This document shows positions 22,379-51,045 of a DNA stretch of 64,000 nt, in pieces. Numbering within the stretch: the first letter of the stretch is position 1; each line of letters opens with the position of its first letter. The translations under genes were made by a program, and so were the position numbers. The notes beneath the pieces are model-generated. The model saw only the letters and a list, made by a program, of their open reading frames with translations. It searched no databases and was not told where the DNA came from. The DNA comes from a virus, in the IMG/VR virus record IMGVR_UViG_3300035703_000077, positions 4,390-68,389 of that record. The stretch is one strand, 5' to 3'.

Positions 22379-25300
22379 TTAACAGCCATAACATATTTTC
22401 CCAATTAGTTGATTTACTTGATGTGTCAAACTTTCAATTTGACATTGTTGTTGTTGAATTGCATTAGTTAAAACAGAAACAATAACAGGATAGTTTATAC
22501 CGAGTATACATCCGCCCGTAACAACTTCGGGTATAAATGGTTTAACTTGTTGTGCAATAAAACCTATATTTTTATGTTTTTCTTCATCATTTTTCATAGT
22601 GTATGTAACGGGTTTTAATTTCATAACATCACATAATCCATAACATATTCTACTAATATTTTCTTTTAATCTAATATCTGAATAATTTACCCAATTTACC
22701 CCACATCCAACATTAGCTATCCATATATTACACCCACCACATATATCACGGCACACACGTAAGCATCCACATACAAATACACTCTCACATGAAATTAAAC
22801 AATTATACGTTGTTATCGTATTTTTAGATAATATAGTTCCACATGTACAAAAATCGCCACAAGATGTTATTTTAGCACATTCATATCCAAAAAAGGGTAA
22901 TGTATGAAATGAAACACTACCACTAACAATACATACATTATTACTAAGTGTTGTAATACCATCAATATCCACACAACCACATATACAAGTATTACCACCT
23001 GAATCAACTTGAAAATCGTGCCATTGACTTACAGTAATAAATCTTGGAATTTTAAGTGTATTTGAACCTATGTCAGTTGCAAACATCGAACCATTGCAAT
23101 TCATATATATATTATTAGAATATAATTCATCACTTCGTATTTCAAATCCACCTATACACCCACACGTTGCTTGAATAATACCACATATTCTTGTATTACT
23201 ACCTAATATAATGGATCCACCTGTCGTATAACTTATTCCACAATTACCATTTAATTTAAATCCACTTGTAGTCCAAAAATTATCAGCATCTATACAAAAT
23301 GAATTTGCTGTAACATTACCACTTACGGTTGCCGACGTTGCAATAAGAGAACCATTCATACAAACTCTAAATGGTGCAGTTGAAAATGTACCAGAACCAA
23401 GATAAATGCCATTAGAATCGGCTGTGAATGAATTTGGAGCAGTTCCTATTCTAATAGTTGAGCCACAAATAGTACCACCAGATATATTTGGTGAACAAAT
23501 ACAAGCATTTGCTACTAGAGAGTTTGCAGTTATGTTACCACTAACAGTTAAATTAGTTCCATCCCACAATAAGCAATTAGATGCAGATTTAAGAGATAAT
23601 TTTGGTGTATTCGCATCATAACCTATAAAAATGCCATTAGTATTATATGCAGTTGCCAACATCCTAATTTTTGGATTGCAATATGTTGGAAAATTTGCAT
23701 CTATTGCTATTATATTTAAACTACCAGAAGTACCCACATTTATAGTTCTGTTTGCGTAAACATCTTGTGCAAATAATATATCAGTTGCTACTGATTGTAG
23801 GGTACAACCAAATGACCTCCAATTAGTATTAGTTCCAGATGGTGCACACCAAAAGAATCCGCAACACCCATCTAGTGATGTGTTATTAGTTTGCCAATAA
23901 CAAGAGCTATATGATACAACATCACGTCTTATGCAATTGTGAAAGAATAATTTACTATTATCCCAATCACCTTGATAAAATACACCAGTACCATCACCAT
24001 CTGTACCAGATCTAACTTTATTAAGTGTAATGTTGTCGTTAATTACACGCAACGTACCTTCAGAATCACAAACAGAAGCAGTCACATTTAATACTATACT
24101 TGGTACATTGGTAGCTAAACACGCTGCACCAAAATTTATAGTTCCCAGTGTGGGATTGTAAGTTGGAGCCACACTCAATGATTGTGAGGTTGAAGTTAGT
24201 GATACTAATGTTAAAGGTTTTGCAGATCCTGTATAAAATTCATTTGCAACTACTGTAACTGTACTGAAATTTTCTATCTGCACACAACTAGCATTTGCGG
24301 AGACCGATTGTGCTTTTGGATTTGACAATAATGAAACTTGAGGTGCGTTTATTCTTGATTTTGCATAATAAACAACTCTTTCTGTTGTAGTCAATATCCC
24401 ATTTGGATCTCGGTAATCAATATTTATATTTAATGTCGCATTTTCAGTTGAAATTGAACTTATACCATACACATTAGTGGTAGGTACCGCTTGTAATGGT
24501 GTTGCTCCAGAACCAGTTACAGTATATCTAAATTTACCATTTGATAAATTTGATACATCTGCCACATATTCAAAATCAACCAAATCGTTTCCACTATATA
24601 CAATAACAGAACCTGTTGATGTGGTAATACCACTTTGAACCACACCAATAGAATTTGCAGGTAATACAAAGTTTGAATTTGATACTGTTATAACTAATGG
24701 GGGTGCCGCATCTGTTAATCTAAATATTGTAGTGGAACTTGTATCACCATCCACCGTAGCAGTATAGCTTATAGACGAAACCTTAACATCACTACGTGAT
24801 CCTGTAAAATTTGTAATGGATAATTCAGCGGACGTATCTGTTACATTTATTAATAAACCAGGATATTGACCACCTGCATAACTTGCAGATGTGAGTAATG
24901 CACCGTTCTCATCAAATGCAGATGATGCAAATGTAGTAGAACCAGAATATCCTTGTCTAATTAATGTTAAATTAATATCGTTTTGAACCAATGGTGATGG
25001 TTCATTTTTATAATCAAATCTAAATGCTATATTATCGGAAGTCAAACTTAATTGTTTAGCCAACCCAGCAACGTCATTCCCACCAGTAAATTGTTTAGAC
25101 CGCTCAACTAAAACGGGTATGTAGTTATTATTTATATCATAAAATTCAAACCTAAAGTCAAAAGTTTCGTTAAATAACTTTCGTGGAATTTGTTGAATAA
25201 ATGTGATCTCATCGGGTGAGAACGAAGTTTCCTGCGATGCCTTTAAACTAACATTTGCCAAAAACCAACTTGTTGGTATAGTTACAGACGAATCTAAATC

Positions 25301-26722
25301 ACCAACAACCTCAAACACCAATTTACCATCACCTGTACTAATTGGTATAAAGTTTATATTAACATCGGTTTTCGTTAAATATTCATTTGAATATTTTATA
25401 GTTCCTATCTCTTGCAAATACTCGGATGAACTTATATACGTTTTTATGTAAGACGTATCACTGCGAGAGCCACTATACAAAACTTTATAAGATAATGAAT
25501 ATTCACTATCTTTTGTAAATGTAAAATCATCTTTAGTTATTACTTTTTGAAAGCTACCACTCTGTGGGTTAAAATCTATTTGAATAGAATTTAATAAATT
25601 TGAAGAGTTTAATGATATCGGGTGATCGATGCTGCTACTTTCCCAATACGTGTCAAAATTAGTTCCATAGAAGTTACCATAATAAACTTCGGTAGCATTA
25701 CTTGCCGTATAGTCTAATAAAAATTCAGTTGCCTCTAATTTAATATCTTGAACTAATTGGAAATCTTCTAATAAACTTCTTGACTTTCTGAATACTTTAA
25801 CTCTGGCAACGTCACCAACAAAGGTTCCTAATCTGCGTAATATGAACTTACCAAATGAACTTAAAGTTGATGAATTTGTTACCGTTTCATTTTCAAAATA
25901 CTCAAATGATGATGTATATGATGCTGATACAAAATTGCTGACTACGTTAGAATTACCAACTATAGTCGTGTATGGTTTATCAACTAATAATTCTCTTTCA
26001 TTTAATACCTCAATAACACTTGCAGAATAGTCTAGAGATGGTATTGTAATTATATTGTCCTGAATGGATGATGTCCAATTTGGACCAGATGATGTGCGTA
26101 GTTTATATAAAGTTCCACCACTATACCCATCCAAAAATATACCAGCATTTGGTATTTCTGCTATACCATCCACCGAACCGCTTTGAGTTATAGTTGGAAC
26201 ATCTATATTAAAAATTGGTTTTACAATTTCGTCTATTTGAATAGTGGGTCTATAATAAAATCTAACCTTATCTTCATTTGCTAAATTTCTATTTATTTTA
26301 AAACGTCTTTTCCACTTTACATTATATTTACCACGCCACTCATCTGGAACATTTCTTTTTATACCATTTTCATCTACGTAAGTTTTTAATTCTGCTAATA
26401 TAGTTATATTGGCTTCACCTATCGGTGTATCTTCATAAACGTGAACGGAAACTACTTTAGATAAACCTTCGTAGTATTCAGGTATCCCATCACCTAATTC
26501 TATGTATACATTGTTACCATTTACATCTTTAATTTCAAGTAAAACATCCGTACTTTCTCTTAAATGATCAGTTCCCTCAATAATAAATCCGTTTTTACCA
26601 CCAGTAAAAACATCTCTAAATTCATTTACTTTTAAGTAAAATGAATTAGGGTCTATATCGTTAATAAAAGTTGAATATTTATCTAAATTTAAATTAGTTC
26701 CGTATTTCTTTATTCTAGACAT
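22379..26722 (-). CDS. Baseplate-attached tail fibre with Cys-rich distal half and peptidase-S74 intramolecular chaperone
   Basis: C-terminal SDIRLKENI...LKPVTY...IGFIAQQV...NY...LTNAIQ followed by a coiled coil; Ser/Thr/Gly-rich beta repeats. Confidence 0.85.
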   Translation of the reverse strand: MSRIKKYGTNLNLDKYSTFINDIDPNSFYLKVNEFRDVFTGGKNGFIIEGTDHLRESTDVLLEIKDVNGNNVYIELGDGIPEYYEGLSKVVSVHVYEDTPIGEANITILAELKTYVDENGIKRNVPDEWRGKYNVKWKRRFKINRNLANEDKVRFYYRPTIQIDEIVKPIFNIDVPTITQSGSVDGIAEIPNAGIFLDGYSGGTLYKLRTSSGPNWTSSIQDNIITIPSLDYSASVIEVLNERELLVDKPYTTIVGNSNVVSNFVSASYTSSFEYFENETVTNSSTLSSFGKFILRRLGTFVGDVARVKVFRKSRSLLEDFQLVQDIKLEATEFLLDYTASNATEVYYGNFYGTNFDTYWESSSIDHPISLNSSNLLNSIQIDFNPQSGSFQKVITKDDFTFTKDSEYSLSYKVLYSGSRSDTSYIKTYISSSEYLQEIGTIKYSNEYLTKTDVNINFIPISTGDGKLVFEVVGDLDSSVTIPTSWFLANVSLKASQETSFSPDEITFIQQIPRKLFNETFDFRFEFYDINNNYIPVLVERSKQFTGGNDVAGLAKQLSLTSDNIAFRFDYKNEPSPLVQNDINLTLIRQGYSGSTTFASSAFDENGALLTSASYAGGQYPGLLINVTDTSAELSITNFTGSRSDVKVSSISYTATVDGDTSSTTIFRLTDAAPPLVITVSNSNFVLPANSIGVVQSGITTSTGSVIVYSGNDLVDFEYVADVSNLSNGKFRYTVTGSGATPLQAVPTTNVYGISSISTENATLNINIDYRDPNGILTTTERVVYYAKSRINAPQVSLLSNPKAQSVSANASCVQIENFSTVTVVANEFYTGSAKPLTLVSLTSTSQSLSVAPTYNPTLGTINFGAACLATNVPSIVLNVTASVCDSEGTLRVINDNITLNKVRSGTDGDGTGVFYQGDWDNSKLFFHNCIRRDVVSYSSCYWQTNNTSLDGCCGFFWCAPSGTNTNWRSFGCTLQSVATDILFAQDVYANRTINVGTSGSLNIIAIDANFPTYCNPKIRMLATAYNTNGIFIGYDANTPKLSLKSASNCLLWDGTNLTVSGNITANSLVANACICSPNISGGTICGSTIRIGTAPNSFTADSNGIYLGSGTFSTAPFRVCMNGSLIATSATVSGNVTANSFCIDADNFWTTSGFKLNGNCGISYTTGGSIILGSNTRICGIIQATCGCIGGFEIRSDELYSNNIYMNCNGSMFATDIGSNTLKIPRFITVSQWHDFQVDSGGNTCICGCVDIDGITTLSNNVCIVSGSVSFHTLPFFGYECAKITSCGDFCTCGTILSKNTITTYNCLISCESVFVCGCLRVCRDICGGCNIWIANVGCGVNWVNYSDIRLKENISRICYGLCDVMKLKPVTYTMKNDEEKHKNIGFIAQQVKPFIPEVVTGGCILGINYPVIVSVLTNAIQQQQCQIESLTHQVNQLIGKICYGC

Positions 26723-26749
26723 ACATATAAATATACATAACCCTATAAA

Positions 26750-29700: not shown

Positions 29701-29929
29701 ACTCTTTTAAAAACCAACTAACCTCTCTTACCAATTCAGGTGTCATTTCAGTTTTTGCGTGTGCAATGTCTCCGCCAATATACAAAATACTATTTTTTGG
29801 TCTATTATCTAGATCTTGTAAAAATTTGTTAAATACTAATCTATATTCGTTATGTCTCTTTAAATTTCTTATGTGCAAATCAGCAATATGATACACATAA
29901 TCTATTGTTGTGTTATTTAATATTTTCAT
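26750..29929 (-). CDS. Fused Mre11/SbcD nuclease and Rad50/SbcC ATPase (T4 gp47+gp46 equivalent)
   Basis: HIADLH, GGD, GNHD, GDIH; Walker A APNAQGKSS, coiled coil with CSIC hook, SSGME signature, IIDEG, ISH. Confidence 0.92.
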   Translation of the reverse strand: MKILNNTTIDYVYHIADLHIRNLKRHNEYRLVFNKFLQDLDNRPKNSILYIGGDIAHAKTEMTPELVREVSWFLKECADRLPTLVIAGNHDCNLLNPSRLDVLSPIVESLNHSNLFYLKDTGVYNVGNLTISVFSIFDNKENWIHGNDIEGDHKIVFFHGPVYSSKTDVGYTVSSKSFTADIFDGFHIGMFGDIHRRQVLQEYDAILNKPILVYCGSLLQQGQGELLENHGYLLWDIKNRNFTEHNIYNEYGYLTLDIIDGQIPQWVYDEVGVKLPKRIRFRLKIQNTNNIELQSCIKELKSMFDEVEVSVTRMDTLNSLKSSSSIDSSLIGNVRDVVFQNKLIGDYLKDSYGLNQDALDKIYDLNVQFNNKLNSNESYLDRIVWIPKTFEFSNMFSYGDGNKIHFNKATGLIGLFAPNAQGKSSVWDALSFCIFDKCSRAFKAQHIMNNQRDNFYCKFHFQINNTDYYVERYAKKTKTGVRVDVNFWREYDGNVESLNGEHRRDTNDKIEYYIGKYDDFILTTLSLQGNNSLFIDKSQSERKDILSQFIGIDVFDKLYDLVLENNKKTNALLERYENIDYSDRIKDIDVELVENKQLQTDLQTKLDTFKLDRQVNIDQLADLNKQIVPLNVESFNIDKLLKDKQNKETETDDVKTKLNETELSIINFEKLETELRLKKDTDYSTIEIEYNKLNELNALSASLHTELDKLVYKLNSNEDTMAHLNEHEYNPDCSICVKNSKSVIDKKETIQTTIEEIKAHIDVKMSELRPIEDSIDKLSYVKVTWNEYNDLLNELDTAKNNLIHLNQSKSELNLLLHTLGSTLETIERNIGNFYKNENTIKSNAIIETQIGEVTLKIKEQDKSIDKLQQEMLKAQTKNNELKAELKSIEKNILEYEELVQTAKLYEYYLDSISRNGVPYNLISKAIPIIEQEINNILTQIVDFTIELEMDGKTINAYIVYSDQKWPLEMSSGMERFVGGLAIRIALINLCNLPRPNFLIIDEGLGTLDGENLQSIFLMFSYLKTQFDFIILISHLDIARDFVDSIMEIRKKGEFSYINF

Positions 29930-30871: not shown

Positions 30872-30900
30872 AATATAACATAAATTTGTTATTTTGTCAA
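30872..30900 (-). promoter_or_regulatory. Sigma70-type promoter TTGACA-N17-TATATT
   Basis: Perfect -35 at 30895-30900, -10 at 30872-30877, 17-nt spacer, directly upstream of primase. Confidence 0.75.
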
Positions 30901-31311
30901 AAAAATTGTTGTATCTTTATGATAAAACTTACCCAAAATTGTATCATTCCAATATAAATCAGGATGTTCTAAGACCTCATACTTAAACAAATATTTAGTT
31001 TCCAAATATGTGAGTTGTTTTTTACTATATGCAAATTCTAAAATGTATCTAGTAAATTCTGTTTGTTTACCTTCTTTTATCATTTGCTTAATTAGTAAGT
31101 TAGAACCATAATAATTTAACCAATCAGATTCTTTTACAATTTTTCTTTTTCTTTTATATCCTTTTAGCGGGGGTAGTGTTTTTTTGGAGTTTAATAATTT
31201 TTTACCTATGTACTTTTTACCACTATTATGTTCTAATAAATATACAAAACCAATAGCACTTTCAGGTATGTCTGAAAGTGCTTTTATTTCAAGATTATTA
31301 TAATTCCACAT
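30889..31311 (-). CDS. GIY-YIG-like nuclease
   Basis: GFVYLL...KKYIGKK...ESDWLNYYGS...E. Confidence 0.7.
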   Translation of the reverse strand: MWNYNNLEIKALSDIPESAIGFVYLLEHNSGKKYIGKKLLNSKKTLPPLKGYKRKRKIVKESDWLNYYGSNLLIKQMIKEGKQTEFTRYILEFAYSKKQLTYLETKYLFKYEVLEHPDLYWNDTILGKFYHKDTTIFLTK

Positions 31312-31533: not shown

Positions 31534-32388
31534 TTACATATCAAATCTAACTATAAAATTTAATGGATAATCTGGTAATTTTTTTACTGGCTTTGCTAAT
31601 TTAGCAACTAATATTAAATCGTGGTCATCATCGTAAAATCCTATGGTTGTAATATATGGTCTTAAATATGATCCAGTTTGATCAGTTAAACCATATAAAA
31701 AATAATCATCCCAAGAACCAGATTTTGATGGATCAGTTGAAGATTGAAATGTTTTCTTAACAAATAATGAACCAGACAGATCAACAACTGCAGAGGGATT
31801 AGTAGATGTATTTGCTTCATATTCAGTTACAGTTAAAAATATCTCACGCTCATAAATAGTTTGTGTTGATTTAAATTTAATATTAAAATCTTGATAAGAT
31901 TCACTAGTTATACTTTTTGTCATAACTATTAAACCTTGTCCATAAAATACGTTACCATACACAACACTACCGCTTTTTAAATTAGAATATCCATCATCCT
32001 TTAAAACTATACTAGATGAATTGTCAGTTAGTGTAACTGAATTTGGTTTTATTCCTTCACCATAATAACTAGATGAAATAGACAATACAACAATTTCACC
32101 TTCTAATAATCTTTCATCCGTAGATGTAAAATTTTCTCGATTACCTGGTAAGTATGCACTACCAGTTGTTGGATTATAATAATATTGTTGTTTTATTGCT
32201 GAATATAATAATCTTGGGTATGTACCATTAACTTTAACCTCAATTTCTTCGTCAAATGTTGAACCACTTAATTGATTTCCAAATTCACTACCATAATATC
32301 GATCAATACTTGATGATGTCAAATCCCAATTTTTATAGGTAGTAAGTTTTCTAACTGTTATATCGTCTTTTTGAATAGGTTTTATCAT
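31534..32388 (-). CDS. Virion structural (baseplate/tail) protein
   Basis: C-terminal PYITTIGFYDDDHDLILVAKLAKP shared with the neighbouring gene; likely start 32388. Confidence 0.7.
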   Translation of the reverse strand: MIKPIQKDDITVRKLTTYKNWDLTSSSIDRYYGSEFGNQLSGSTFDEEIEVKVNGTYPRLLYSAIKQQYYYNPTTGSAYLPGNRENFTSTDERLLEGEIVVLSISSSYYGEGIKPNSVTLTDNSSSIVLKDDGYSNLKSGSVVYGNVFYGQGLIVMTKSITSESYQDFNIKFKSTQTIYEREIFLTVTEYEANTSTNPSAVVDLSGSLFVKKTFQSSTDPSKSGSWDDYFLYGLTDQTGSYLRPYITTIGFYDDDHDLILVAKLAKPVKKLPDYPLNFIVRFDM

Positions 32389-32405
32389 AAATATAAATAT
32401 AGTAT

Positions 32406-32439
32406 AAAAAAATAACCCAACCATAGGATTGGGTTATTT
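32406..32439 (-). terminator. Intrinsic terminator
   Basis: AATAACCCAA-loop-TTGGGTTATT followed by a T-run on the minus strand. Confidence 0.75.
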
Positions 32440-40800: not shown

Positions 40801-42992
40801 ATTATACTAAATATATTCCTACCAATATCTATATTTGATCTTGGTTGTATATTTTCAACTTTGGTTGTTCCCAAAACTTCAATATTACTTGGTCCGTCAT
40901 AACCAAATGCAGTTTTATATATAGAGTCTACTTTTACATTTATTACATTTGGTGTTAATGTAAAAATTGGATTTCTAACTACTATACCATTTAATTTATA
41001 ATAAACTTGTGTTTCATATAAAGTTCCATTAACTTTATAAATTATGGTATATGTAACATTTTGCTCTCTAGTTAAAAACGAAGTTATTTGATTTGGTATT
41101 GCTAAAAAATTTACATTAGAGTTACTCCAGAATTCAGGAGATTGGAAATTTAATCTTACACTACTAAATTGTACATTATCTACATAATATTGATTGTCCA
41201 ATAGTAAATTTTTTGGAACTTTATTGATCCAATTTAATGTAGTAATACTACCGTTTTGATTTATAATTCTACCAAATAATGATATTGGGTTTGTTCTATC
41301 CCATAACCCAAAAGTTTCTATACCAGCCGGTAACGGCGATGTATCTGTTATTCTTATTATATTATTTGTGGTTTCATCAATATAATATGGAACTGTAATA
41401 ATGCCAGATTGATCTTTTGTATTTTGATTTGGTATTAACGGTGAATTGATTGTATCAAAATCAAAGTAAAATTCAACTTTATCTGTTTTTTGAGGTGATA
41501 GTGCTTGTGATAAACGTAAATTTACAGGAAATGTTATAGAACCATCGGCTGACTTAAATATTAATAATATATTTCTATTTAGTGTATTTGTGTTTTGAGT
41601 TACAAATCCAGATATAGTTTTTGAACCTTTCCCATTTAATTCATTTATAGTTAGCCAATTAACAGGGATATTATTTTCAAATTGTATAGCCCAATCAAAC
41701 CCGTCATCTGTTATTATATTAAATGAAAAATTACCACCACTATATGGTATTAATATTTCTTGGGTACTAATTGTAAAATTTGGTGCATTATTTATATTTA
41801 AGTTTAAGTTAACTGTATTTCCATTTATTAATTCAAATGTCTGTGAAGTTTCACCCAAATTATTTACATTTGGTAAATTGTAATAAGGTGTAAATTTAAC
41901 TTTTAAATCAATGAATTTTTTTAACTGGTCTGGTTTATTTATTTTTAAAATTTTACTACCATTTAAAATTTCATTGGTTTGTGTTTTAATTTCACTTACT
42001 TGTGATATTATTTCTTCAGATCCATTTGAATTCACCCCAAATATTTGATATTTTACATTAGTTGAATTTTTACAATTATAATTTATATCTATAATAGATT
42101 GATCTAAATTATATTTTAATATCGGATTTGGTTTTGCATCTACTATTGTAATTTGAGGTACTTGTTGAGTATCTGTTTTTTGCCATAAATTAAATGACAA
42201 AGTAGAAATGCTACCATCAGTTGCGACAAAACTTTTTTCTTGTTTAATATATACATTATCAAATGGATCCCATTTTTCAATAAAAATAGCATATTCTGTA
42301 TAATTGATAGGTTTATTTATTGATATTCTATAAAAGGAATCTGTTATATAGCTGTTATCACGAAACTCAATTTTTATAGACTTATCTTTTATTTCACTAA
42401 ATGGTATTGATATTTCACGAGGACCTCGTGTGTTATTAATAGCAACCCCATCCCTGTGGATAATACCTACGTCATTACCTCTATTTGATTCAATCTTTAA
42501 TCTCAAATTACCGTTTGGAAAAACGCTGTCTGGTATGCCATCTGATACTATAAAATCACTATTATTTTGAGTAAAGCTGCCATTTGGATTTGTTATAGTT
42601 ACTAATAATTTTGTATTATTAGGTATAGTAGAAATAGATGGTAATATTATATCACACTCAATTTCATTTGCCCGTACTAAATCTATAAGTGTTGGATCTT
42701 CTACTGCTACATTAGAAACTATCTGCTCTCTTATTCCACTATTGTTATATCTAAAATATTTTACATTACTTACAGATACCAAGGAACCAAAACTAACAGA
42801 TGCACCAAAATATACATTTTCAACATAAATTTTTACAGTTGTAGGTTGGTTTCTATTAGATAAACTATTTGGTAAAAAGTATGGAGATACTATATATGGC
42901 GTAAGTTGGTCAGCAACCCGTTCAATTGCAGCTGTTTCTGCATTTACTCGCGAAAATATATTATTTAATTGACCACTTTGTATTATTGCCAT
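37899..42992 (-). CDS. Large virion protein with a BACON domain and about six Ig-like repeats
   Basis: BACON-like segment (W...NWLTINELNGKG...NTNTLNR); repeated P-N...V.VD...I.Y.D..G modules; ends KMYEPLP...WISKQRS. Confidence 0.65.
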   Translation of the reverse strand: MAIIQSGQLNNIFSRVNAETAAIERVADQLTPYIVSPYFLPNSLSNRNQPTTVKIYVENVYFGASVSFGSLVSVSNVKYFRYNNSGIREQIVSNVAVEDPTLIDLVRANEIECDIILPSISTIPNNTKLLVTITNPNGSFTQNNSDFIVSDGIPDSVFPNGNLRLKIESNRGNDVGIIHRDGVAINNTRGPREISIPFSEIKDKSIKIEFRDNSYITDSFYRISINKPINYTEYAIFIEKWDPFDNVYIKQEKSFVATDGSISTLSFNLWQKTDTQQVPQITIVDAKPNPILKYNLDQSIIDINYNCKNSTNVKYQIFGVNSNGSEEIISQVSEIKTQTNEILNGSKILKINKPDQLKKFIDLKVKFTPYYNLPNVNNLGETSQTFELINGNTVNLNLNINNAPNFTISTQEILIPYSGGNFSFNIITDDGFDWAIQFENNIPVNWLTINELNGKGSKTISGFVTQNTNTLNRNILLIFKSADGSITFPVNLRLSQALSPQKTDKVEFYFDFDTINSPLIPNQNTKDQSGIITVPYYIDETTNNIIRITDTSPLPAGIETFGLWDRTNPISLFGRIINQNGSITTLNWINKVPKNLLLDNQYYVDNVQFSSVRLNFQSPEFWSNSNVNFLAIPNQITSFLTREQNVTYTIIYKVNGTLYETQVYYKLNGIVVRNPIFTLTPNVINVKVDSIYKTAFGYDGPSNIEVLGTTKVENIQPRSNIDIGRNIFSIIGIEFYRNWKTPTQQRVNYVAGSNVDSLKPNIFGFSINDVFSDQALTGIVKIRYKNNIGDIRDYELIFNLYRTDVLTPSSFTINPSKKYVKVNKNFIPISTKSGTQFETFRVTVNGFEPRLNNDNFEYSFTPFEPSAGYFTITNVEFTKEESSDRIEFNGFLNSNAIPPNRQNQTFGYTQNYFEVYVYNISKPIYGKATIRYRNTNQNIPIEIEPLTETVYFEIIPDIEGEDVTPPTIPTYTIVAKPNADLLLPVDCNNSILGEILPVSISVTQTNTKNTNDVKILNFTQNSNDPKSGEFKIVNVTSDVDNLNFLFGNDNTITLQRNFLDKSYVVNVTIEYRDDNLNLNRTYTSFKINRIAPKPYVVTFTPNPSNINVIVDYTNQFNINSISTPSIKILADETDLMNNTRVPLRYTTGDLVKGTYKIKKIEGFVLTTDAPATNEIFIPENGILEKNHSIKIFVDYIDSCGASKSNVQIFIPVNRIAPRGQEVLATIKPNFIDVEVDFRRSLVQTPIPFPEILVELSEREVGSGLAPIPMQYTQNNLLNKNQFKIKKVYGNSIDSYELSSFSKFRPSVKKILQSEYGYAEIEYKDISGKEGTTTLQFYLNRIQLPQRFSKISVKTTVLRQVVIVSDNFDIIDQTYDEIKNIPILATQILPNDKVSTPLKFVKLESGKTLTDDSTYTINSIFAYEEDTNKFVDYVGFEILNNGEIRVLANQIKSNIIVKINTSYIDYYGNSGKVDIVSSIIPDVTPPIITRIEYPEGINARDYIGFNQDFDVTFESEFSTNVAIYVTNYGENYLYQRYKPDSIANFNMQDLISRFGIDTGDGDTFDFTLILVPERFENNKYKEGQYEDIVIQFNKSNIQIPRPFIINNLNNIIKPKFDFTIYKDEVAKYLNHYLHFDNEEPRLIANWERDDITFSEFEVDELGNEIPTSVNPTLVLKMYEPLPEDITVNTSIWISKQRS

Positions 42993-43039
42993 AATTCATA
43001 CTATTGTTTTACTATAATAAATATTAAATAATTTGTTTA

Positions 43040-45238
43040 TTATAATTCAAATTTACTAAAGGTTTTTTTATCTTTTAAAAAATCTGTTATAGCTTGTGTA
43101 GGCTGTTGATACACACCCCCCTTAGTTGGATCAGTTATTTTAACTAATTCTTGCCAATCTGATTTGTAAAAAAATCCATCACCATCGGTAAAACCTTTAA
43201 AGAAAGGATAGTTACGACCCCAATTTATATACTTTAAATTTCCAGTTCCACCAAATTGTATTGGACTTGGTTTTCCAAATTCATAAACATAAAATTCTCG
43301 TGTAACGTCATAATATCTATTTTCAAATTTACCAGTAACATAATTCAAAGACGAGTATGGAACTTTAGCTTGCGATTTCCATACTCCCATAGTTGGTATT
43401 GTTATTCTTCTAAATTTTAAAAATATATTTATATCCTTTGTTATTTTTATTTCTAGTTTAAATTTATCCGATAGTAATTCACCAGTATCCCAATTATAAA
43501 ATCCCTCAAATACCCAATCTTCAGTTTGTGCTTGTGGAAAAAAGCCTTGTAAAGTACTTTCACTTGATATTTTTGAGCCATATAATAATACTGACTTAGA
43601 ACAATTTATCCGCTTTCCACCGTCAATATCTGTAAAACTATTAGGTTGATCATTAATTGAAATTGACTTATTTTTTATTGTATAATATAATGGCCAATTT
43701 AACAGTTCAATCTCTATTCTATTATCTTTAAATATTTCTATATTTTTTTCATCCCCCTTATTTTCATTAAAATAATAATATGGTATTAAATAATTATCGT
43801 TTGGTATATATTTTATATTTGTGTTAACAATTGTGGGTTGATTTGGTATTATTGGCTGAATCGGTGAAATTGAAGCAAAATCTCGTTCAGAATCTGTCCA
43901 AGTGAATTCACGTATTAATTGTTGCTTTTCTTGTTTCAAATATTCTACATAGCCATCCCATTCAGTATCATCGGTAGTATTAAATTTACGTTGAATAAAA
44001 TTTAAGTCTTTTGATACATATGATTGATTTACATAATCATACTCCTTTACTTGTAATGGCTCAAGTGAAAATCCATCAAATACAATAGGTATTTTACCAG
44101 GTACTGCTAAAGCTGCATCATACTTATACAATAAATTTTTTGGTTGATTTGAATATAATGAAACTTTAACACGACCTTGCTCACGATCAAAATTTACGCG
44201 AGGTAATGGTGTTGGTGATGGTGTGACGCCAGGTGGTAATGTTGGTGTTGGTGTAGGTGTTGGTGTTGGTGGGTTTGGATCTCTTTGAGTAGGAACTGAT
44301 ATTGTTGGTCTAATTGTTGGTGAAGTAAACTCTTCAATATCTTCGACAAATTCAGTTTCTTCAAAATCTACTAATTTGGGTATATATACCTCCAAACTTT
44401 CTAATAGTTTATTAAAACAAAATGTTGGAAAATCTATACTAACTTGTGATGTAGGTTTATCTTTCCCAAAGTTTGGATTAAATGTATTGTACGTGCGACC
44501 AATTAAAGAATCTTTATCTTGAAGTTCAAATCTAACTGCATTTTTAAATGCATTAATTAAATTATTTATAATTTTATTAAACTCAAATATATTGTTTTTA
44601 AAATATTGTTTTATTATCTCATTAAAAACAGGTTCAGTGACTTGATTAATTAATAATTCTCTAATATTATCTAGTGTAATAGAATCTAAAAATGGATCAA
44701 TTGCTTCAAAAATATCTTCTTTAAATTGTTCATCATTTAAAAACGCTTGATATCTCTCATCTATAATCTGTTGGAGTGGTAAACCATCAACTCGTATTTC
44801 ATCAACATCAAATGGTAAAACTCTTATTTCAGTTCTGGACGGTGATATTTCCTGTATCCATACTCTATTAGGTTTATCTTGTGTACCAAGTCTGTTATTA
44901 ACAAACATCATTTCTACAGTAAATATTCCAATATTATAGCCAGCATCTTTTATTAATTTCTTAACGTCAATAGTATAATTTCTTCTTGATTTTTTATCAA
45001 CATTTTCAATTTTTTTATAATATTGAGGTTGATTTGCTTTATTAATATATCTAACCAATCCATAATTACGTTGTGGTAGTGGATTATTACTAGCGTCATA
45101 AATTATAACACGTATAGTATCGTGTTTAAATGATCCAAATGAAGTTTTTAAATCATACTGTTGAAATATTTCTAATTCATTTTCAGGTACAAATCTACCT
45201 TTATCTTGTATTATGGATTTGAATTTATCTAATGACAT
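43040..45238 (-). CDS. Virion structural protein with Pro/Thr linker
   Basis: WIQEISPSRTEIR motif; PNPPTPTPTPTPTLPPGVTPSPTP linker. Confidence 0.6.
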   Translation of the reverse strand: MSLDKFKSIIQDKGRFVPENELEIFQQYDLKTSFGSFKHDTIRVIIYDASNNPLPQRNYGLVRYINKANQPQYYKKIENVDKKSRRNYTIDVKKLIKDAGYNIGIFTVEMMFVNNRLGTQDKPNRVWIQEISPSRTEIRVLPFDVDEIRVDGLPLQQIIDERYQAFLNDEQFKEDIFEAIDPFLDSITLDNIRELLINQVTEPVFNEIIKQYFKNNIFEFNKIINNLINAFKNAVRFELQDKDSLIGRTYNTFNPNFGKDKPTSQVSIDFPTFCFNKLLESLEVYIPKLVDFEETEFVEDIEEFTSPTIRPTISVPTQRDPNPPTPTPTPTPTLPPGVTPSPTPLPRVNFDREQGRVKVSLYSNQPKNLLYKYDAALAVPGKIPIVFDGFSLEPLQVKEYDYVNQSYVSKDLNFIQRKFNTTDDTEWDGYVEYLKQEKQQLIREFTWTDSERDFASISPIQPIIPNQPTIVNTNIKYIPNDNYLIPYYYFNENKGDEKNIEIFKDNRIEIELLNWPLYYTIKNKSISINDQPNSFTDIDGGKRINCSKSVLLYGSKISSESTLQGFFPQAQTEDWVFEGFYNWDTGELLSDKFKLEIKITKDINIFLKFRRITIPTMGVWKSQAKVPYSSLNYVTGKFENRYYDVTREFYVYEFGKPSPIQFGGTGNLKYINWGRNYPFFKGFTDGDGFFYKSDWQELVKITDPTKGGVYQQPTQAITDFLKDKKTFSKFEL

Positions 45239-45272
45239 ATTTATAAATATTTTTTTATTATTTATTAACTAA

Positions 45273-48200
45273 TTAACTCCATTTAGTTTGTATACTTGCA
45301 TCACCACTTACAATATATACAGTACCTCGAACTGCTTGTATCCTATGAGCACCAGTTTCATTTTGACGTTTTGGTTTTACTAGAGTAGTTCGTTTTCTGT
45401 CACCATCTATGTAAGAAATAGTCCAAGTATCAGCATCATCACTAACTATAAAATACGTTTCAATAAATGCATTTTGAATATATAATGTATATGCCTCTCC
45501 TGTTGAAGCTGGAGTTATAGTTCCTTGCTGTGTTCCTACTATTATAACTCCATTTTTCGTTGCATCGAAATCAAATGATTCAAATGAATTTAAAGTTTTT
45601 ACAATTATTCTATTATCTGGTGTTAAATATTCAAATGTAAATGGATAATTGAATATGGTATTAGATAATGCATTGTATCTAACTATATTTGGATCTGTGC
45701 CACCTGTTCCAATATTACTTAAATCATTTAATTGAGTTATTTGTATAGACTTTGTTTCTGTTCCATACTTTAATACAAGAGTAGCAGACCTGTTAGCAAG
45801 TGTTGTATTGGCTTGTATTTGCACTGGAACTTTTAATGTACCATTGCCAGATATAGGTGTAGGTTTAACCCACGTTTCATTAGATTCTAATGTCCATATT
45901 AAATTTGGATTATTTGTCAATATATCAACTTCAAATGTAATTCCTTTTGATGATACTGCATTGATTGATGAATCAGTTTTAAATTCAACTGTTGTGGCAA
46001 TATTTGATAATTGGTTAATAGTTAATGTAGATGGAATTGGTGTTCCATCAGTTGCGCTAACAGTCAAAATACCATCACGTGAATTTAAAGTATTATTTGG
46101 AAGTATTTTCAATTCTATTGCTTGGTTACCTTTACCATTTCTGGTATTTGCCTCGATCCAATTAACATTAATATCTAATTTCCAACTCAAATTATTATCA
46201 TTATTAGTGTCAATTGTTATGGTTCTATTTTCACCAGATCCAATTGCGTCTTTTATATTAGATGGCGTAATTTTTAACAATCGATTTGTCGTTACATTTC
46301 CTTTATTTTGACTAATATTAATAATAGCATAGTTTGTACCAGAGTTAATATTTGCTGAATAGTTTATATTTGAAGTTGCGTCTTGAACAAAAATTCTAGC
46401 TTGTCGTATGGATGGTGAATTTTGCAATGAACTAATATAAGATGCTATTTTAAATTTTATGTTAGAACTACCGACACCAGCAACAATTCCATTTATAGGT
46501 GTAAAACTAGTTGTAGTGTTTGTTAAATTTTGAGGTATAATCCAATCTGGTAAGCCAGCTATAATCCACCTAGTATCTGTTTTTTGAGTTATTATTTTAA
46601 AGTCTATTTCAGTTGCGTCACTTGAAACAGATTTACCATTTAAAATAGTTTTATCCACACCATTTGTATCAACTACACTAATTAACGGGTTTTGGCTAGT
46701 TCCTGTGCCAGCTCTGCCAAATAAAATCGGGTATATTTCAAATGCAGATGACCCATCCCAATTTGCATATTCTAGTGTCAAAAATAACTTTATTATTTGT
46801 CCGGTTGGAAATTGATTAAAATGTTTAGACGGATCAATTATATAACTTTTACTTAAATTATTTGGATTCATATATTTAAACCCATCGGCATCTCCAATAA
46901 TTATAGAGTTATAGTATCTCCAATCCGTGTTAGTAAAGTTTGTATTTTGATTTTGCATAAATAGTGATGGTATCATACCATATCCCCATTCAGCAATTTT
47001 TTCTTCAATATTCACTGGACTTATTACGTCTTGTGTTGTTCGTGGTTCAAATTTTAAACCATATTTGAAATCTAAATCGGCACCACCGCTTAATGTAATT
47101 CGAAGTTTTCTAATACTAGCATCTGATGGTAGATTACTTAAATCTATATTTATTTTGGTTTCAGGTGTGTATAATTTATACCCTCGCACTAATGCAGTGG
47201 AGTTTAAAATAGTTTGTCCCAACCCATCACGTGGGCTAATTACATATTCTTGATCTGAAACTGGTAATCCTTTAAACGTTGGATCTTCATTTATTTGTTG
47301 TTGTGATAACTGTATTGGCAATGAAGTCGTGGTTACATTCCATGGTGACGATACATCTATTACATTTATAGATAACGATGAGTCCCTATCAATATATGGG
47401 TATACATTTAAAGGTATTATATCAGGGTAATTTTCTGGAAATTGTCCCCAATCTCCAGTATTTGGATTAACATCAAAATATCCGGTACCACATAATGATG
47501 GCATTACAAAAAATCCCGTTTCAGCCAACTCTCGAATTTCACTTGCAGTTGCATTACGATAAACACCATTAAAAGCATCTTGTTTATTTGCGTAAATTCT
47601 AGTTGATTCTAAGCCCACATAGCGTGACTCCCACCCATTTGGTCTTTGATCTAATACGTTAGTCCATAATCCCCTAACTGATCTAGTTTCTATATTATTA
47701 TGTATATAATATCCAACATTTTTTATACACTCTCCCTCTCTCTTAAATACAGGTGAAAATCTACGTTTAATATTTATTGGTTCACCATTATATTCAAATT
47801 TAATTTTTTTATTTCTAACTTGAACTGTTGGGTATGGGTCAAAGTGATTGTATGGTGGGTAACTAGGGAATACTGCATTCGGTCTATTAACCCATTCTAC
47901 AGTTGAATAACGAGGAACTTTGATCCTATATTTAGTTCCACTTGGAACATTTTGATAATTTTCTGGAATAGATTCACCATCATTTAGTATTCTATTACTT
48001 TTATTATATGGATCAAACCAATATTTAGAAACACCATTAGAATTACGAGTTTCTATAGGTGACACAAATTCACCAATTAGGCCTGGACTTGCCCCACCCG
48101 GTAGCCTTTTGTATGGTCCTAATGGTACAATCAAGCTATCACCAGATACACTGACATCCAAATTGAACGTGGATCCACCTTCTTCTATACTAACAATTTC

Positions 48201-49991
48201 ATATTCAACATTGTTTTCTAGATTTAGTCCAAATGTTAGCCATGAATTATATAAACCCAAAGATAAATCTGTTATAAATGGATTACCACCATCTATAACT
48301 AATGTCTCTTCACCAATAGGTGTACCTAAGTCAATCCCATTACCATTATATATTGTTTTTTTAATAGTGACTTTATAATCAAATGAAGATGCCCCATTTG
48401 TTCGTATGTATTCACGATATTTTTTAACAAGTGGGTGACTTTCCCCTAATTCAGTTAAATCTGGTGCTAATCGAATACCAACCATTGAACCCCTACGAGT
48501 TTTAAATCTATAAGGATCACCGAATGCACCTGGTTTATTAGCGGTAGGATTATTTTGATTTTTATACGCACTACTATCTATACCTATAATACCAAATGGT
48601 ATATCTCTAACATTCGCAGATGCCGATTCACTTATACTTCTAAATGTGTAAAAACCTAACCAATTCATAATAGCTAAAAATGGGCTATCATTTAAACTAA
48701 CTACAAAATTTTTAGGTGAACTTAAATCCCAAGTTTCAACGCCTCTATCCACTCGAATAACCGGCGATGTCCATTCGTTGGGGTAACAATCTGCACTTCG
48801 GCATACCAAATCTCTATATGAATTATCAATATCATAATCTGTAGTTGGTTTCCACCCACCACCTGCATCTAATATTGTACTTGCTTGTTCTATTGGTAAA
48901 CTAGTATCCCATACCTCATACGAAGTGTCTTTTAGATTAAATTTTCTTAAATCAGGCACCATTGGTGAATAATTTGCCATTTTTTGTTTTAAAAATGATG
49001 TCATAACTTCATACGAATCTGGTGCATTTGAGAATGGAATGCCTCTTAATGATTCAACTGGAGCTCCACTATTTCTACCATCAATATCACCAACTGCATA
49101 TGGAGTGCATATCCACCCTTTAACATTATTTTTAATTTGAAATATTCTAAATAATTCACTTGCGTGATTCTTGGCTACTTTTGGAAGTGTGTACCAATAG
49201 TCACGAGCTCGTCTAATTTCTGCCTCAATGGGTTCCCTCCAATTTGGCGTTTCTTTATCACGACGTGCTTCTTCTCTTCGTATTCTTTCTTCACGTGGGA
49301 TATCACCTGGAGGTGGAGTTCTTGTGGGTATGGAAGTTGTAGGTGTAGTAGTTGGAGTTGGAGTTGGAGTTGGACCTGTTCCCCCACCACCGAATCCACC
49401 ACCACCCCCTCCGGTGCCACCACCACCTCCTCCGGTGCCACCACCGAATCCACCACCACCACCAGCAGCTGCACCACCAGAGATTAAACTATTTAGAGAA
49501 TTTATTTGACTTTGCAAAGCAGAAATCTGTGCTTTAAACGCATTAACTTGACCACTTAATTCTGCATTTCTAGATTCCGCCTCCGTTGCACGCTGAATAG
49601 CAGAATTAAAATCACTCATTGCTTTATTTAAACGCGATGTCAAATCTTCAATTTGTTTTTGTAATGATTCACTTAATTTACCAGCTGATTCTAATTGAGC
49701 TTGTAAATCTTCAACCTGTCTCTGTAAATCTGTGACTTGAAGTCTGAATTCTTCTGATAGGATATTGGCGTTTTGAAATTGAAGTATAACATTATCAAAG
49801 TCATTTAATAGTCTATTATATTCATCCAATGTTACTAAATTAAAATCGGTAGCTTTTGGTTGTGGGATTAGTTCACTTACTTCTACATTTACTGCTTTTT
49901 TTAATTCAGTATCATTATAAGATGGTCTTATAAGTGAAGATCCAGCTAGACCAGGTGTATTATCTCTTGTATTAAAAACTTTTTTAGCCAT
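45273..49991 (-). CDS. Large virion protein: coiled coil, Gly-rich/PT linker, three C-terminal BACON-like domains
   Basis: Heptad region QVTDLQRQVEDLQAQLE; poly-Gly; PTPTPTP; W...W...G.G....I..N.....R BACON pattern three times. Confidence 0.65.
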   Translation of the reverse strand: MAKKVFNTRDNTPGLAGSSLIRPSYNDTELKKAVNVEVSELIPQPKATDFNLVTLDEYNRLLNDFDNVILQFQNANILSEEFRLQVTDLQRQVEDLQAQLESAGKLSESLQKQIEDLTSRLNKAMSDFNSAIQRATEAESRNAELSGQVNAFKAQISALQSQINSLNSLISGGAAAGGGGGFGGGTGGGGGGTGGGGGGFGGGGTGPTPTPTPTTTPTTSIPTRTPPPGDIPREERIRREEARRDKETPNWREPIEAEIRRARDYWYTLPKVAKNHASELFRIFQIKNNVKGWICTPYAVGDIDGRNSGAPVESLRGIPFSNAPDSYEVMTSFLKQKMANYSPMVPDLRKFNLKDTSYEVWDTSLPIEQASTILDAGGGWKPTTDYDIDNSYRDLVCRSADCYPNEWTSPVIRVDRGVETWDLSSPKNFVVSLNDSPFLAIMNWLGFYTFRSISESASANVRDIPFGIIGIDSSAYKNQNNPTANKPGAFGDPYRFKTRRGSMVGIRLAPDLTELGESHPLVKKYREYIRTNGASSFDYKVTIKKTIYNGNGIDLGTPIGEETLVIDGGNPFITDLSLGLYNSWLTFGLNLENNVEYEIVSIEEGGSTFNLDVSVSGDSLIVPLGPYKRLPGGASPGLIGEFVSPIETRNSNGVSKYWFDPYNKSNRILNDGESIPENYQNVPSGTKYRIKVPRYSTVEWVNRPNAVFPSYPPYNHFDPYPTVQVRNKKIKFEYNGEPINIKRRFSPVFKREGECIKNVGYYIHNNIETRSVRGLWTNVLDQRPNGWESRYVGLESTRIYANKQDAFNGVYRNATASEIRELAETGFFVMPSLCGTGYFDVNPNTGDWGQFPENYPDIIPLNVYPYIDRDSSLSINVIDVSSPWNVTTTSLPIQLSQQQINEDPTFKGLPVSDQEYVISPRDGLGQTILNSTALVRGYKLYTPETKINIDLSNLPSDASIRKLRITLSGGADLDFKYGLKFEPRTTQDVISPVNIEEKIAEWGYGMIPSLFMQNQNTNFTNTDWRYYNSIIIGDADGFKYMNPNNLSKSYIIDPSKHFNQFPTGQIIKLFLTLEYANWDGSSAFEIYPILFGRAGTGTSQNPLISVVDTNGVDKTILNGKSVSSDATEIDFKIITQKTDTRWIIAGLPDWIIPQNLTNTTTSFTPINGIVAGVGSSNIKFKIASYISSLQNSPSIRQARIFVQDATSNINYSANINSGTNYAIINISQNKGNVTTNRLLKITPSNIKDAIGSGENRTITIDTNNDNNLSWKLDINVNWIEANTRNGKGNQAIELKILPNNTLNSRDGILTVSATDGTPIPSTLTINQLSNIATTVEFKTDSSINAVSSKGITFEVDILTNNPNLIWTLESNETWVKPTPISGNGTLKVPVQIQANTTLANRSATLVLKYGTETKSIQITQLNDLSNIGTGGTDPNIVRYNALSNTIFNYPFTFEYLTPDNRIIVKTLNSFESFDFDATKNGVIIVGTQQGTITPASTGEAYTLYIQNAFIETYFIVSDDADTWTISYIDGDRKRTTLVKPKRQNETGAHRIQAVRGTVYIVSGDASIQTKWS
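49330..49478. repeat. Low-complexity coding repeats (poly-Gly and PT linker)
   Basis: ccaccaccgaatccaccaccacc and cctccggtgccaccacc each occur twice; tandem gttgga. Confidence 0.85.
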
Positions 49992-49992
49992 T

Positions 49993-51045
49993 TTAATTTA
50001 TTAATCTAAATTTATAATTATCATTGAAGTATTCAATAGCTCCGTTTCTTTCAATTTTAAAATTTATAATATAATCTCTATTAATTTCCCAATCAGTAAA
50101 ATCCAAATCTATATAGTTAATATTAGTGGTATTACAGCTAATACGGGAATAATCCGAAAATGGTATTATTATAGTATCCGTTAAGTAATCTCTAATTTCA
50201 TAGTATGATATTTTTGGTAAAGCTCTTTGTTTATATTGATGCGCTTTATTATAAATATTAGTAGGGTATAATTCTCTACCAACAATTTCTATTCTATTTT
50301 TAGTATTTACTTTATAATTTGTTTTTAATTTTGGTACAACTGCTAATTGATATGCTGAATTTAAATTCATCAAACTTCCAGTTGAATATGTAAAATCATT
50401 AATTCCAACTCTTAATCTAGGTGAATGTATAGTGTGTGTTTCTTTACTAAAAAATTGTAATTTTCCATAATCGGTTTGGTCTAAATCAGCAGCATTTGAA
50501 TGTTTTATTATTAATCCATTATTAGGTATTGATCCACTTAACCACCCCGTTACAGCATCAATTACATTTAATTCTGTGTCTCCACTTTGATAATTAAATG
50601 ATTGGCTAGCTTCAGGGGCAACAAACCAAACCCCACCCAAACCATCGTCAAACGTTGAAAACGAGCTACCTGTTATTACACCACTACCCCACACAGTTAG
50701 TGAATTTGCATCCCTATATTTCCACGTAACTCCATATGTGTTTTTATCGTAATCAATTCTACCAGTTCCCATTTCCCAACTTCCTGATATAGGATATGCA
50801 TATATTGTATAATCCAATGGTATTTCATCTACTTGATCAACTCTTAATATTAAGTGTGCAGTCTCAATTGATTGACTAACTAAACTACTAAAATCAAATT
50901 GTATTAATGATCTTGCGATATTAAAATTGTCAGATCCTGATAAAAATTTACCAACTTCTAATATCGGATCTAGTCCCGTGTTAGATGTTATTGCACCTTT
51001 ATAAATAGATGTGTCTTTTGATGGTTTTAGAAATTTATACATCAA
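49993..51045 (-). CDS. DNRLRE/CBM96-like virion protein
   Basis: KDTSIY...NTG...RSLIQFD...W.MGTG...NNGLII...F.SKE....PRL pattern. Confidence 0.6.
   Translation of the reverse strand: MMYKFLKPSKDTSIYKGAITSNTGLDPILEVGKFLSGSDNFNIARSLIQFDFSSLVSQSIETAHLILRVDQVDEIPLDYTIYAYPISGSWEMGTGRIDYDKNTYGVTWKYRDANSLTVWGSGVITGSSFSTFDDGLGGVWFVAPEASQSFNYQSGDTELNVIDAVTGWLSGSIPNNGLIIKHSNAADLDQTDYGKLQFFSKETHTIHSPRLRVGINDFTYSTGSLMNLNSAYQLAVVPKLKTNYKVNTKNRIEIVGRELYPTNIYNKAHQYKQRALPKISYYEIRDYLTDTIIIPFSDYSRISCNTTNINYIDLDFTDWEINRDYIINFKIERNGAIEYFNDNYKFRLIN

Follow-up and report, generated by a model that had tools for sequence, protein, structure and literature searches.

The window analysed here, a stretch of 64,000 nucleotides from the IMG/VR virus record IMGVR_UViG_3300035703_000077 (positions 4,390 to 68,389), contains the tail and baseplate module of a myovirus, and the tripeptide [S/T]-G-S recurs in five of the proteins it encodes. 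The source record comprises 68 kb with an estimated completeness of 38%; every gene in the window lies on the minus strand and the G+C content is about 30%. Within the tail/baseplate module, the wedge resembles gp6, another protein resembles gp25, the hub/lysin contains a VanY domain and the fibre ends in an S74-type domain; genes for the portal, terminase, primase and an SbcC-like nuclease are also present in the window. Only two cultured relatives were identified, Flavobacterium phage immuto and Microcystis phage Mel-JY01, which keep the gene order and whose tail proteins are 27-32% identical. A nucleotide search of the GenBank phages with the tail region of the window gave no match, and a metagenome scan revealed a single 24-kb contig with 93% identity as a closer relative. 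No mention of Mel-JY01 was found in the literature. The five motif-bearing proteins are the following:

22379-26722, minus strand: tail fibre of 1447 amino acids (aa) with an S74-type intramolecular chaperone domain (PF13884, E-value 1.8e-12, residues 1348-1401); 10 sites
31534-32388, minus strand: protein B, a peripheral tail/baseplate-module protein of 284 aa from its probable start; 6 sites
32472-33686, minus strand: protein C, a tail-module protein of 404 aa; 4 sites including an overlapping SGSGS
34432-37896, minus strand: protein D, a large baseplate/tail protein of 1154 aa; 12 sites, 8 of them within residues 382-514
49993-51045, minus strand: protein E of 349-350 aa, whose gene immediately follows that of the gp6-like wedge; 5 sites

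The fibre matched tail-fibre PHROGs and showed a weak match to the tail fibre 8jov, through its chaperone end only. Protein B probably starts at 32388, giving 284 aa instead of the 296 aa of the open reading frame (ORF); its model has a predicted local distance difference test (pLDDT) score of 76, and no fold match was found in the PDB at E-values ≤0.001. Orthologues of protein C in immuto, Mel-JY01 and the large aquatic phage G033 are 38-40% identical and carry 4 sites each. Protein D has no sequence relative in the PDB, and its site-rich residues 382-514 coincide with a weak LamG-like stretch (PF13385). The N-terminal domain of protein E is a beta-sandwich like that of a carbohydrate-binding module (CBM; 8wab, E-value 1.3e-4; model pLDDT 79), and resembles polysaccharide-binding CBMs. 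Collagen-like G-X-Y runs with glycine at every third residue occur in none of the five proteins, whose sites are isolated.

Motifs were counted as overlapping matches and compared with 2000 composition-preserving shuffles per protein. The counts were 10 against 2.35 expected for the fibre (p<0.0005), 6 against 0.47 for the 296-aa ORF of protein B at 31534-32424 (p<0.0005), 4 against 0.81 for protein C (p=0.007), 12 against 1.04 for protein D (p<0.0005) and 5 against 0.35 for protein E (p<0.0005). An unbiased scan of all tripeptides in these proteins ranked SGS first (26 against 2.72, Poisson P 3.8e-17) and TGS second (11 against 2.30), while SAS was mildly enriched (7 against 1.57). Of 53 GS dipeptides, 37 were preceded by S or T; of 83 [ST]G dipeptides, 37 were followed by S; and V, L, I or Y stood directly before the motif at 22 of the 37 sites. 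Eight large neighbouring proteins (8129 aa) had the motif in 0 of 31 xGS and 0 of 72 [ST]Gx tripeptides, where about 5.1 were expected; the neighbours of 1697 and 1572 aa, with expectations of 0.85 and 1.79, had none. Avoidance outside the five proteins was weak, the rest of the window containing 5 motifs against 9.0 expected. As the codons differ widely between the sites, the motif is a feature of the proteins and an origin as a DNA-level repeat is ruled out; the shuffles and the per-protein expectations likewise rule out compositional bias. A sequence-only reading of the window had counted about 12 motifs in protein D, about 10 in the fibre, 6 in B and 5 in E, and our counts reproduce these values. 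Its 3 for protein C become 4, since the overlapping SGSGS had been counted once, and the enrichment holds. The statements that composition does not explain the motif (at most 0.7% of the 2000 shuffles per protein reach the observed count), that the 1697-aa and 1572-aa neighbours lack it and that a hydrophobic residue often precedes it were borne out as well, and from the proposed SAS and TAS variants the SAS part stands in a mild form.

Homologues of proteins B and E were detected in aquatic metagenomes in large numbers (1311 and 935, respectively), and site statistics were calculated from the best 120 of each. The B family carries a mean of 3.9 sites against 0.33 expected and the E family 3.3 against 0.48. 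Nearly fixed sites are TGS-238 of B, present in 120 of 120 sequences, and TGS-221, SGS-169 and SGS-86 of E, present in 107, 99 and 90; the remaining sites are limited to sub-lineages. A proteome-wide scan identified 9 enriched ORFs in immuto and 12 in Mel-JY01, the rest of each proteome containing 40 motifs against 33.4 expected and 36 against 27.7. The enriched proteins belong to the tail module, include the tail sheath, or are annotated as virion structural proteins or encoded next to such genes, so that the external motif carriers comprise fibres, peripheral baseplate, outer sheath and sometimes the capsid. Phage T4 had 20 motifs against 28.6 expected and none of its 219 ORFs was enriched. 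The motif is thus not private to the window, being found clade-wide on external virion proteins.

The fibre gene is followed directly, on the same strand, by a cluster of genes for glycosyltransferases (GTs) and related proteins. Its first three genes form a cassette:

21065-22318, minus strand: GT60-type glycosyltransferase of 417 aa (PF11397 'GlcNAc', E-value 1e-61, 209.8 bits against a cut-off of 21; the match was reproduced on the source record)
19878-21062, minus strand: GT-B-like glycosyltransferase of 394 aa (weak PF00534 match, 17.2 bits, below the cut-off)
18785-19876, minus strand: UDP-galactopyranose mutase, Glf (PF03275, 7.8e-78, and an N-terminal FAD/NAD-binding Rossmann domain, PF13450, 1.9e-22)
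15734-18749, minus strand: remainder of the glycan cluster, with a 298-aa protein of unknown function (17853-18749), two weakly GT2-like proteins (17168-17872 and 16480-17232) and a DUF5672 protein (15734-16528)

Glf would supply UDP-galactofuranose. The 250-aa GT2-like protein has only one homologue among the relative genomes, a gene with 28% identity in a glycan cluster of Mel-JY01. The cassette recurs in the large aquatic phages G033 (105210-111482), G032 (70561-76946) and G024 (249931-254142), with the 394-aa GT next to the GT60 gene in all three. GT60 proteins are 68-71% identical to that of the window (about 64-71% overall), 394-aa GTs 64% and Glf proteins 52-68%, while the core genes of the same phages are just 24-46% identical to those of the window. 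The cassette is therefore horizontally mobile. A total of 41 viral contigs, the longest of 335 kb, carry GT60 homologues.

The sequence-only reading had assigned the recognition of [S/T]GS, and with it the decoration of specific baseplate and fibre subunits, to this adjacent cluster. The location directly behind the fibre gene and the position of the G033 cassette inside the tail module speak for this assignment, as does the activity of GT60 enzymes, which transfer N-acetylglucosamine (GlcNAc) to protein hydroxyl groups (CAZy). The gene distribution contradicts it. Immuto, Mel-JY01, G060 and G062 are strongly enriched in the motif and lack GT60, which for immuto and Mel-JY01 was ascertained by tblastn and hidden Markov model searches. 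Conversely, the complete 257-kb genome of G024 (54 against 43.6) and G029 (24 against 22.6) carry cassettes with 63-71% identity to that of the window, G055 and XacN1 carry a more distant GT60 alone (XacN1: 4e-77; 78 motifs against 77.2), and none of these four is enriched. Across the panel, 3 of 7 GT60-positive and 4 of 5 GT60-negative genomes are motif-enriched, which shows the enrichment to be independent of GT60. GT60 was also absent from all 20 contigs bearing an E-family gene (each ≤50% complete), and the difference between cassette (64-71%) and core gene identities indicates that the cassette moves independently of the motif proteins. We consider it very improbable that the GT60 cluster reads the tripeptide.

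The comparison of genomes pointed to another set of GT genes. A phyletic profile was calculated for all 187 immuto ORFs, with Mel-JY01, G033 and G032 as further motif-positive genomes and T4, XacN1, G024, G029 and G055 as motif-negative ones. Nineteen ORFs had homologues in all three other motif-positive genomes, and 4 of these 19 had no homologue in the five motif-negative genomes. Three of the four are contiguous and encode GTs, hereafter referred to as the trio:

first trio gene in immuto: GT-B protein of 480 aa
second trio gene in immuto: GT-B protein of 436 aa
third trio gene in immuto: GT2 protein of 207 aa
56410-57210, minus strand: 266-aa protein encoded in the window, sharing the phyletic profile of the trio and the only one of the four that is not a GT

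In immuto and Mel-JY01 the trio lies in a syntenic glycan cluster elsewhere in the genome; the three immuto genes are gp181, gp180 and gp178. The single homologue of the window's 250-aa GT2-like protein belongs to this cluster of Mel-JY01, a point in favour of the explanation preferred below. The 480-aa protein matched Glycos_transf_1 with 30.1 bits (cut-off 26.4), the 436-aa protein with 20.8 bits, below the cut-off. Both contain the EX7E motif ('NEGwGlslTE' and 'EGfGRPllEF'), which is the catalytic motif of GT4-type enzymes, and both glutamates are invariant in six genomes. The GT2 protein (immuto 52421-52843) matched Glycos_transf_2 with 30.3 bits against a cut-off of 23.3 and its 'DADE' (DxD) is invariant in the same number of genomes. 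The 266-aa protein gave no Pfam or PHROG match; judged by eye, its conserved 'A.SYF..I....L' core may be sigma-factor-like.

Two further features were noted at the trio loci. The Mel-JY01 orthologue of the 480-aa GT is annotated as two adjacent ORFs of 190 and 302 aa (L096 5442-6933; Mel-JY01 record 83441-84932), which jointly cover the immuto protein and could represent a split gene or a frameshift. An ORF of about 90 aa is located between the genes for the 436-aa GT and the GT2 protein in G032 (302925-303215), G060 (43359-43649) and G062 (116117-116377); it is 47-57% identical over about 50-65 aa to residues ~290-350 of the major capsid protein and contains no [ST]GS.

Presence of the trio and enrichment of the motif coincided throughout the panel of 12 mutually related genomes: 6 of 6 trio-positive and 0 of 6 trio-negative genomes were enriched (Fisher 0.002, a value that is descriptive only since the genomes are related). 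Each of the trio-positive genomes immuto, Mel-JY01, G033, G032, G060 and G062 has 5-10 proteins enriched at P<1e-3, and in the trio-negative G024, G029, G055, XacN1 and T4 none of 161-523 ORFs reached this level. G060 (362 against 116.8) and G062 (149 against 57.2) were found independently, via another protein family, and both possess all three trio genes. The sixth trio-negative genome, LR756508.1, lacks the 436-aa GT over its 484 kb and shows no enrichment in its tail region (13 against 7.4). Two suspected counterexamples, G062, which has the trio and no site in a 317-aa orthologue, and LR756508.1, which has a protein D homologue and no trio, both proved consistent genome-wide. The motif-positive complete genomes each have some GT cluster. 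Only three E-bearing panel genomes are at least 80% complete, and all three contain the trio; the 436-aa GT was not found in the 20 E-bearing contigs, which are uninformative at ≤50% completeness, nor in 11 further GT60-bearing fragments, which are informative for G055 alone (89% complete). Among 50,697 GenBank phage records the 436-aa GT occurs in five, namely four immuto records and Mel-JY01; it has 258 relatives in viral contigs and at least 8,000 metagenome homologues.

The same contrast between trio-positive and trio-negative genomes was observed for individual virion proteins. The sheath orthologues of immuto, Mel-JY01 and G033 contain 7, 4 and 6 sites, those of G024 and T4 none, and capsid orthologues contain 1, 1, 5 and 2 against 0, 0 and 0. 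No site was present in the tube, portal, gp6 wedge, gp25 and hub orthologues of the panel genomes; terminase, primase and other non-virion proteins contain one site at most, irrespective of trio status. The sites of the immuto sheath (gp041) lie at residues 62-275 of 709, that is in the N-terminal 40% and outside the conserved C-terminal core, a region which, going by the structure of T4 gp18, we take to be the protruding domains. In general terms, the sequence-only reading had proposed that some tail proteins carry a sequon-like motif tied to phage-encoded virion glycosylation. This idea is retained as the most likely one, in so far as the motif is clade-wide, occurs on external proteins and co-varies with a GT trio; the part concerning the adjacent cluster is not.

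Giant fibres of up to 2865 aa are encoded by G033 (50053-58413 and 69369-77966), G032 (229201-245424) and G060 (103818-120671). They contain collagen-like G-X-Y tracts consisting nearly entirely of Ser/Thr, interspersed with globular segments in which Phi-[ST]GS-Phi recurs periodically.

A purely structural or physicochemical role has to be weighed against glycosylation at this point. The sequence Phi-[S/T]-G-S-Phi could remain unmodified and serve to form exposed turns, cap strands and make up short beta repeats, for instance in the interest of solubility, hydration or the packing of fibres; the trio would then co-occur by shared ancestry or module exchange and act elsewhere, e.g. on host envelope glycans. 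Models of B and E agree with such a role: at 10 of 11 sites DSSP assigns no regular state to the central glycine, which often comes right after a strand or helix, and the sites at residues 139-141 and 205-207 of B and 35-37 of E are located exactly at strand-turn-strand junctions, while two of the sites are in low-confidence loops. The modelled positions fit exposed turns, in line with the surface loops expected by the sequence-only reading, without telling the explanations apart. Glycine is, moreover, often already there at matching positions of trio-negative orthologues, where G024 frequently shows TGT, TGL, SGT, IGT or VGT with the glycine kept and the hydroxyl flanks missing, and it is the ancestral element at low-occupancy sites.

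Comparison of orthologues and of conserved sites points in the other direction. A 394-aa protein of G032 contains 14 sites (0.88 expected), and its orthologue of the same length and 32% identity in G024 contains none. G024 is the nearest panel relative of G032, with 69 shared proteins at 45% identity as compared to 39-43 at 35-38% shared with the immuto clade. Protein D and its counterparts carry 12, 11, 5 and 6 sites in four lineages with the trio, and the orthologue of trio-negative LR756508.1, which is just as distant, carries 2; between the window, Mel-JY01, immuto and G033 these sites are positionally unshared, so they turn over between lineages and are not bound to fold positions. Such contrasts argue against the motif as a requirement of the fold. 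T4, XacN1 and G024 likewise make similar beta-rich fibres, sheath and baseplate without enrichment. Several conserved sites retain the flanking S/T and S in at least 97% of sequences while the glycine is replaced in part by A, S, E or Q, as in columns 110-112 of E (S 0.97, G 0.76, S 0.98) and 98-100 of B (T 0.99, G 0.21 with A in 87 sequences, S 0.99). Constrained hydroxyls around a replaceable glycine are the opposite of what a glycine-dependent turn predicts and argue against it, and the preference after the glycine is specific to S (37 of 83) and does not extend to the other turn residues N, T, D and G. We regard the purely structural explanation as less likely than glycosylation, yet as its strongest competitor.

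Functions of the motif other than glycosylation are conceivable, among them another Ser/Thr modification (phosphorylation, acylation or phosphoglycosylation), binding by a chaperone during assembly, or contact with polysaccharides of the host surface. Hydroxyls conserved at positions i and i+2 suit many chemistries, and the restriction to external proteins and the CBM-like domain of protein E fit a contact with a ligand, too. No kinase, acyltransferase or other candidate enzyme, however, shares the phyletic pattern, which is confined to the GT trio and one further gene. A common host ligand is unlikely because the hosts span phyla (Flavobacterium and Microcystis), and the sites occur on many unrelated folds, the sheath included. 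Taken together, this group of alternatives appears improbable to us.

The explanation we favour, tentatively and with a little less than even confidence, is that [S/T]GS is the O-glycosylation acceptor motif of the conserved GT trio and that the cluster in the window is an accessory cassette for glycan tailoring. The tripeptide, or more loosely a hydroxyl residue followed by a small residue and Ser, would be selected in quantity on outward-facing virion proteins of an extensive group of aquatic myoviruses. The two GT-B proteins of about 480 and 436 aa and the GT2 protein of about 207 aa would O-glycosylate Ser/Thr of the motif in the cytoplasm, and we infer that the window phage has these genes as well, presumably elsewhere in its genome beyond the 38%-complete record. 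The GT60-GT-Glf-GT2 cluster would at most elaborate the glycan, e.g. with GlcNAc or galactofuranose, and would not be the reader of the tripeptide. Glycosylation of DNA by the trio was considered as well and is made unlikely for immuto by published liquid chromatography-mass spectrometry analyses, which list only dA, dC, dT and fdPreQ1 as constituents of immuto DNA (PMC10516641).

Several observations weigh against a glycosylation motif read by the trio, some of them in favour of a structural role. In related fibres the motif forms periodic arrays of 6-7 residues ('FTGSVRITGSLSL') beside collagen-like GXY tracts of S/T, which looks structural. The non-virion proteins of trio-positive immuto and Mel-JY01 show no avoidance of the tripeptide (40 against 33.4 and 36 against 27.7). 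Orthologues with zero sites exist inside trio-positive genomes, namely the G032 sheath and the 317-aa G062 member of the family of the 394-aa G032 protein. As the non-GT 266-aa gene has the same phyletic pattern, shared ancestry contributes to the pattern of the trio; G032 has about 20 more genes in common with the immuto clade than G024 has, and relatedness is a confounder of the association between motif and trio. The panel is small, with negatives that include the 51% complete G029, the 89% complete G055 and LR756508.1, whose motif scan covered a 43-kb tail region only, and trio-negative G055 is mildly elevated (57 against 36.2; P about 0.007 for 2 proteins). The 68-kb source record lacks the trio, whose presence in the window phage is presumed from relatives. 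Surface exposure was read from the DSSP strings of the B and E models only. The support is wholly comparative, and a glycan on these proteins is a prediction.

The genes surrounding the motif-bearing proteins provide a negative contrast and some observations in their own right:

51042-53514, minus strand: internal baseplate proteins with 0 sites, a gp6-like wedge of 678 aa and a gp25-like protein of 143 aa, both assigned by family matches
37899-49991, minus strand: three giant motif-free ORFs of 1697, 732 and 1572 aa, inserted between E and D; 0 sites each

In Mel-JY01 and immuto the position of the giant ORFs is occupied by a single small gene, and homologues of the three are absent from all panel genomes; a coiled coil and BACON domains are present in the 1572-aa protein. 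A 684-aa protein encoded upstream of the baseplate genes (53918-55972) has a C-terminal VanY D-Ala-D-Ala carboxypeptidase domain, pointing to a cell-wall hydrolase associated with the tail. Thymidylate synthase is encoded by a gene in two pieces, ORF 62147-62467 corresponding to positions 1-90 of the Pfam model and 60635-61438 to positions 75-264, both of which (60635-62467) match one single immuto gene, and a NUMOD-domain ORF resembling homing endonucleases (61392-62108) sits between them. The idea of a group I intron at this place is unsupported, as no Rfam intron family matched the region at E-values ≤0.01. A gene for a SegE-like GIY-YIG endonuclease (30889-31311) is found between the tail module and the primase gene, a position shared with immuto, Mel-JY01 and G033. 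Finally, a 1491-aa protein (10776-15251) represents a fusion of an N-terminal cytidylyltransferase-like domain with several domains of unknown function and has a partial counterpart in Mel-JY01, annotated as cytidylyltransferase-like.

Glycosylation systems with related features are known. Bacteroidota possess a general O-glycosylation system with the sequon D-(S/T)-(A/I/L/V/M/T), which is host-encoded and periplasmic. It resembles the case described here in that a three-residue motif is used on many proteins and one host of the clade is a Flavobacterium, and differs in its motif, its encoding by the host and its location in the periplasm; as [ST]GS is equally enriched in a cyanobacterial phage, the motif is independent of the Bacteroidota host system. 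GtfA/GtfB of Gram-positive bacteria form an O-GlcNAc transferase pair that acts on serine-rich repeat adhesins. The likeness, by analogy only, consists in two adjacent GT-B proteins and serine-rich acceptors with alternate hydroxyls, and in the long Ser/Thr tracts of related phage fibres. GtfB is not known to be catalytic, whereas both phage GT-Bs keep EX7E, and GtfA/GtfB entries were not among the PDB sequence-search hits listed for the trio GT-Bs. Polypeptide alpha-GlcNAc transferases of family GT60 occur in Dictyostelium and trypanosomatids (CAZy); the 417-aa protein of the window shares PF11397 with them (1e-61), yet the distribution of its gene does not follow the motif.

The closest logic is found in chloroviruses such as PBCV-1, where virus-encoded cytoplasmic GTs act at a non-canonical sequon; GTs that all chloroviruses possess build a core glycan, to which individual viruses add decorations of their own (review, PMC5408694). 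Core and decorations mirror the conserved trio and the variable accessory cassettes. The chlorovirus glycans are, however, N-linked to Asn on the capsid of a eukaryotic algal virus; the acceptors proposed here are Ser/Thr of phage tail proteins. B736L of chlorovirus NY-2A is the nearest solved relative of both trio GT-Bs, with a weak similarity (E-values 0.0016 and 0.09) that is too weak for orthology, and its own function is given as unknown in the same review (PMC5408694). In mycobacteriophages, phage-encoded GTs are reported to modify structural proteins of the virion (Freeman et al. 2023, Cell Host Microbe). Phage-encoded GTs as modifiers of virion proteins, here only predicted, are common to both cases; the mycobacteriophage work concerns siphoviruses of actinobacteria with capsid and tail-tube targets, while our candidate targets in aquatic myoviruses are the fibres, the outer sheath and the peripheral baseplate, which carry a defined tripeptide. 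Glycosylation of phage virions is known from only a few cases, and a full-text literature search, which did not extend to most subscription journals, found no description of an [S/T]-G-S motif, of the trio or of a sequence motif predicting virion glycosylation.

A wider picture, which seems quite conceivable to us though short of probable, would be that of a glycan shield: aquatic myoviruses would O-glycosylate their outward tail proteins and sometimes the capsid, with the trio reading [S/T]-G-S, sites turning over on exposed turns and mobile cassettes diversifying the glycan. If the motif is indeed the acceptor of the trio, bacteriophages would have their first defined sequon for O-glycosylation, readable from sequence in thousands of uncultured genomes, and glycosylated surfaces could be predicted across very abundant environmental phages. 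Such a coat would bear on protease resistance, on the avoidance of non-productive adsorption and on host recognition, and enzymes and tag together would offer a compact, portable system for glycoengineering. Should the motif be purely structural, it would still mark outward-facing tail proteins cleanly and in a lineage-specific way, a signal not exploited by present annotation pipelines. Either way, the GT60-GT-Glf cassette is a separate mobile unit.

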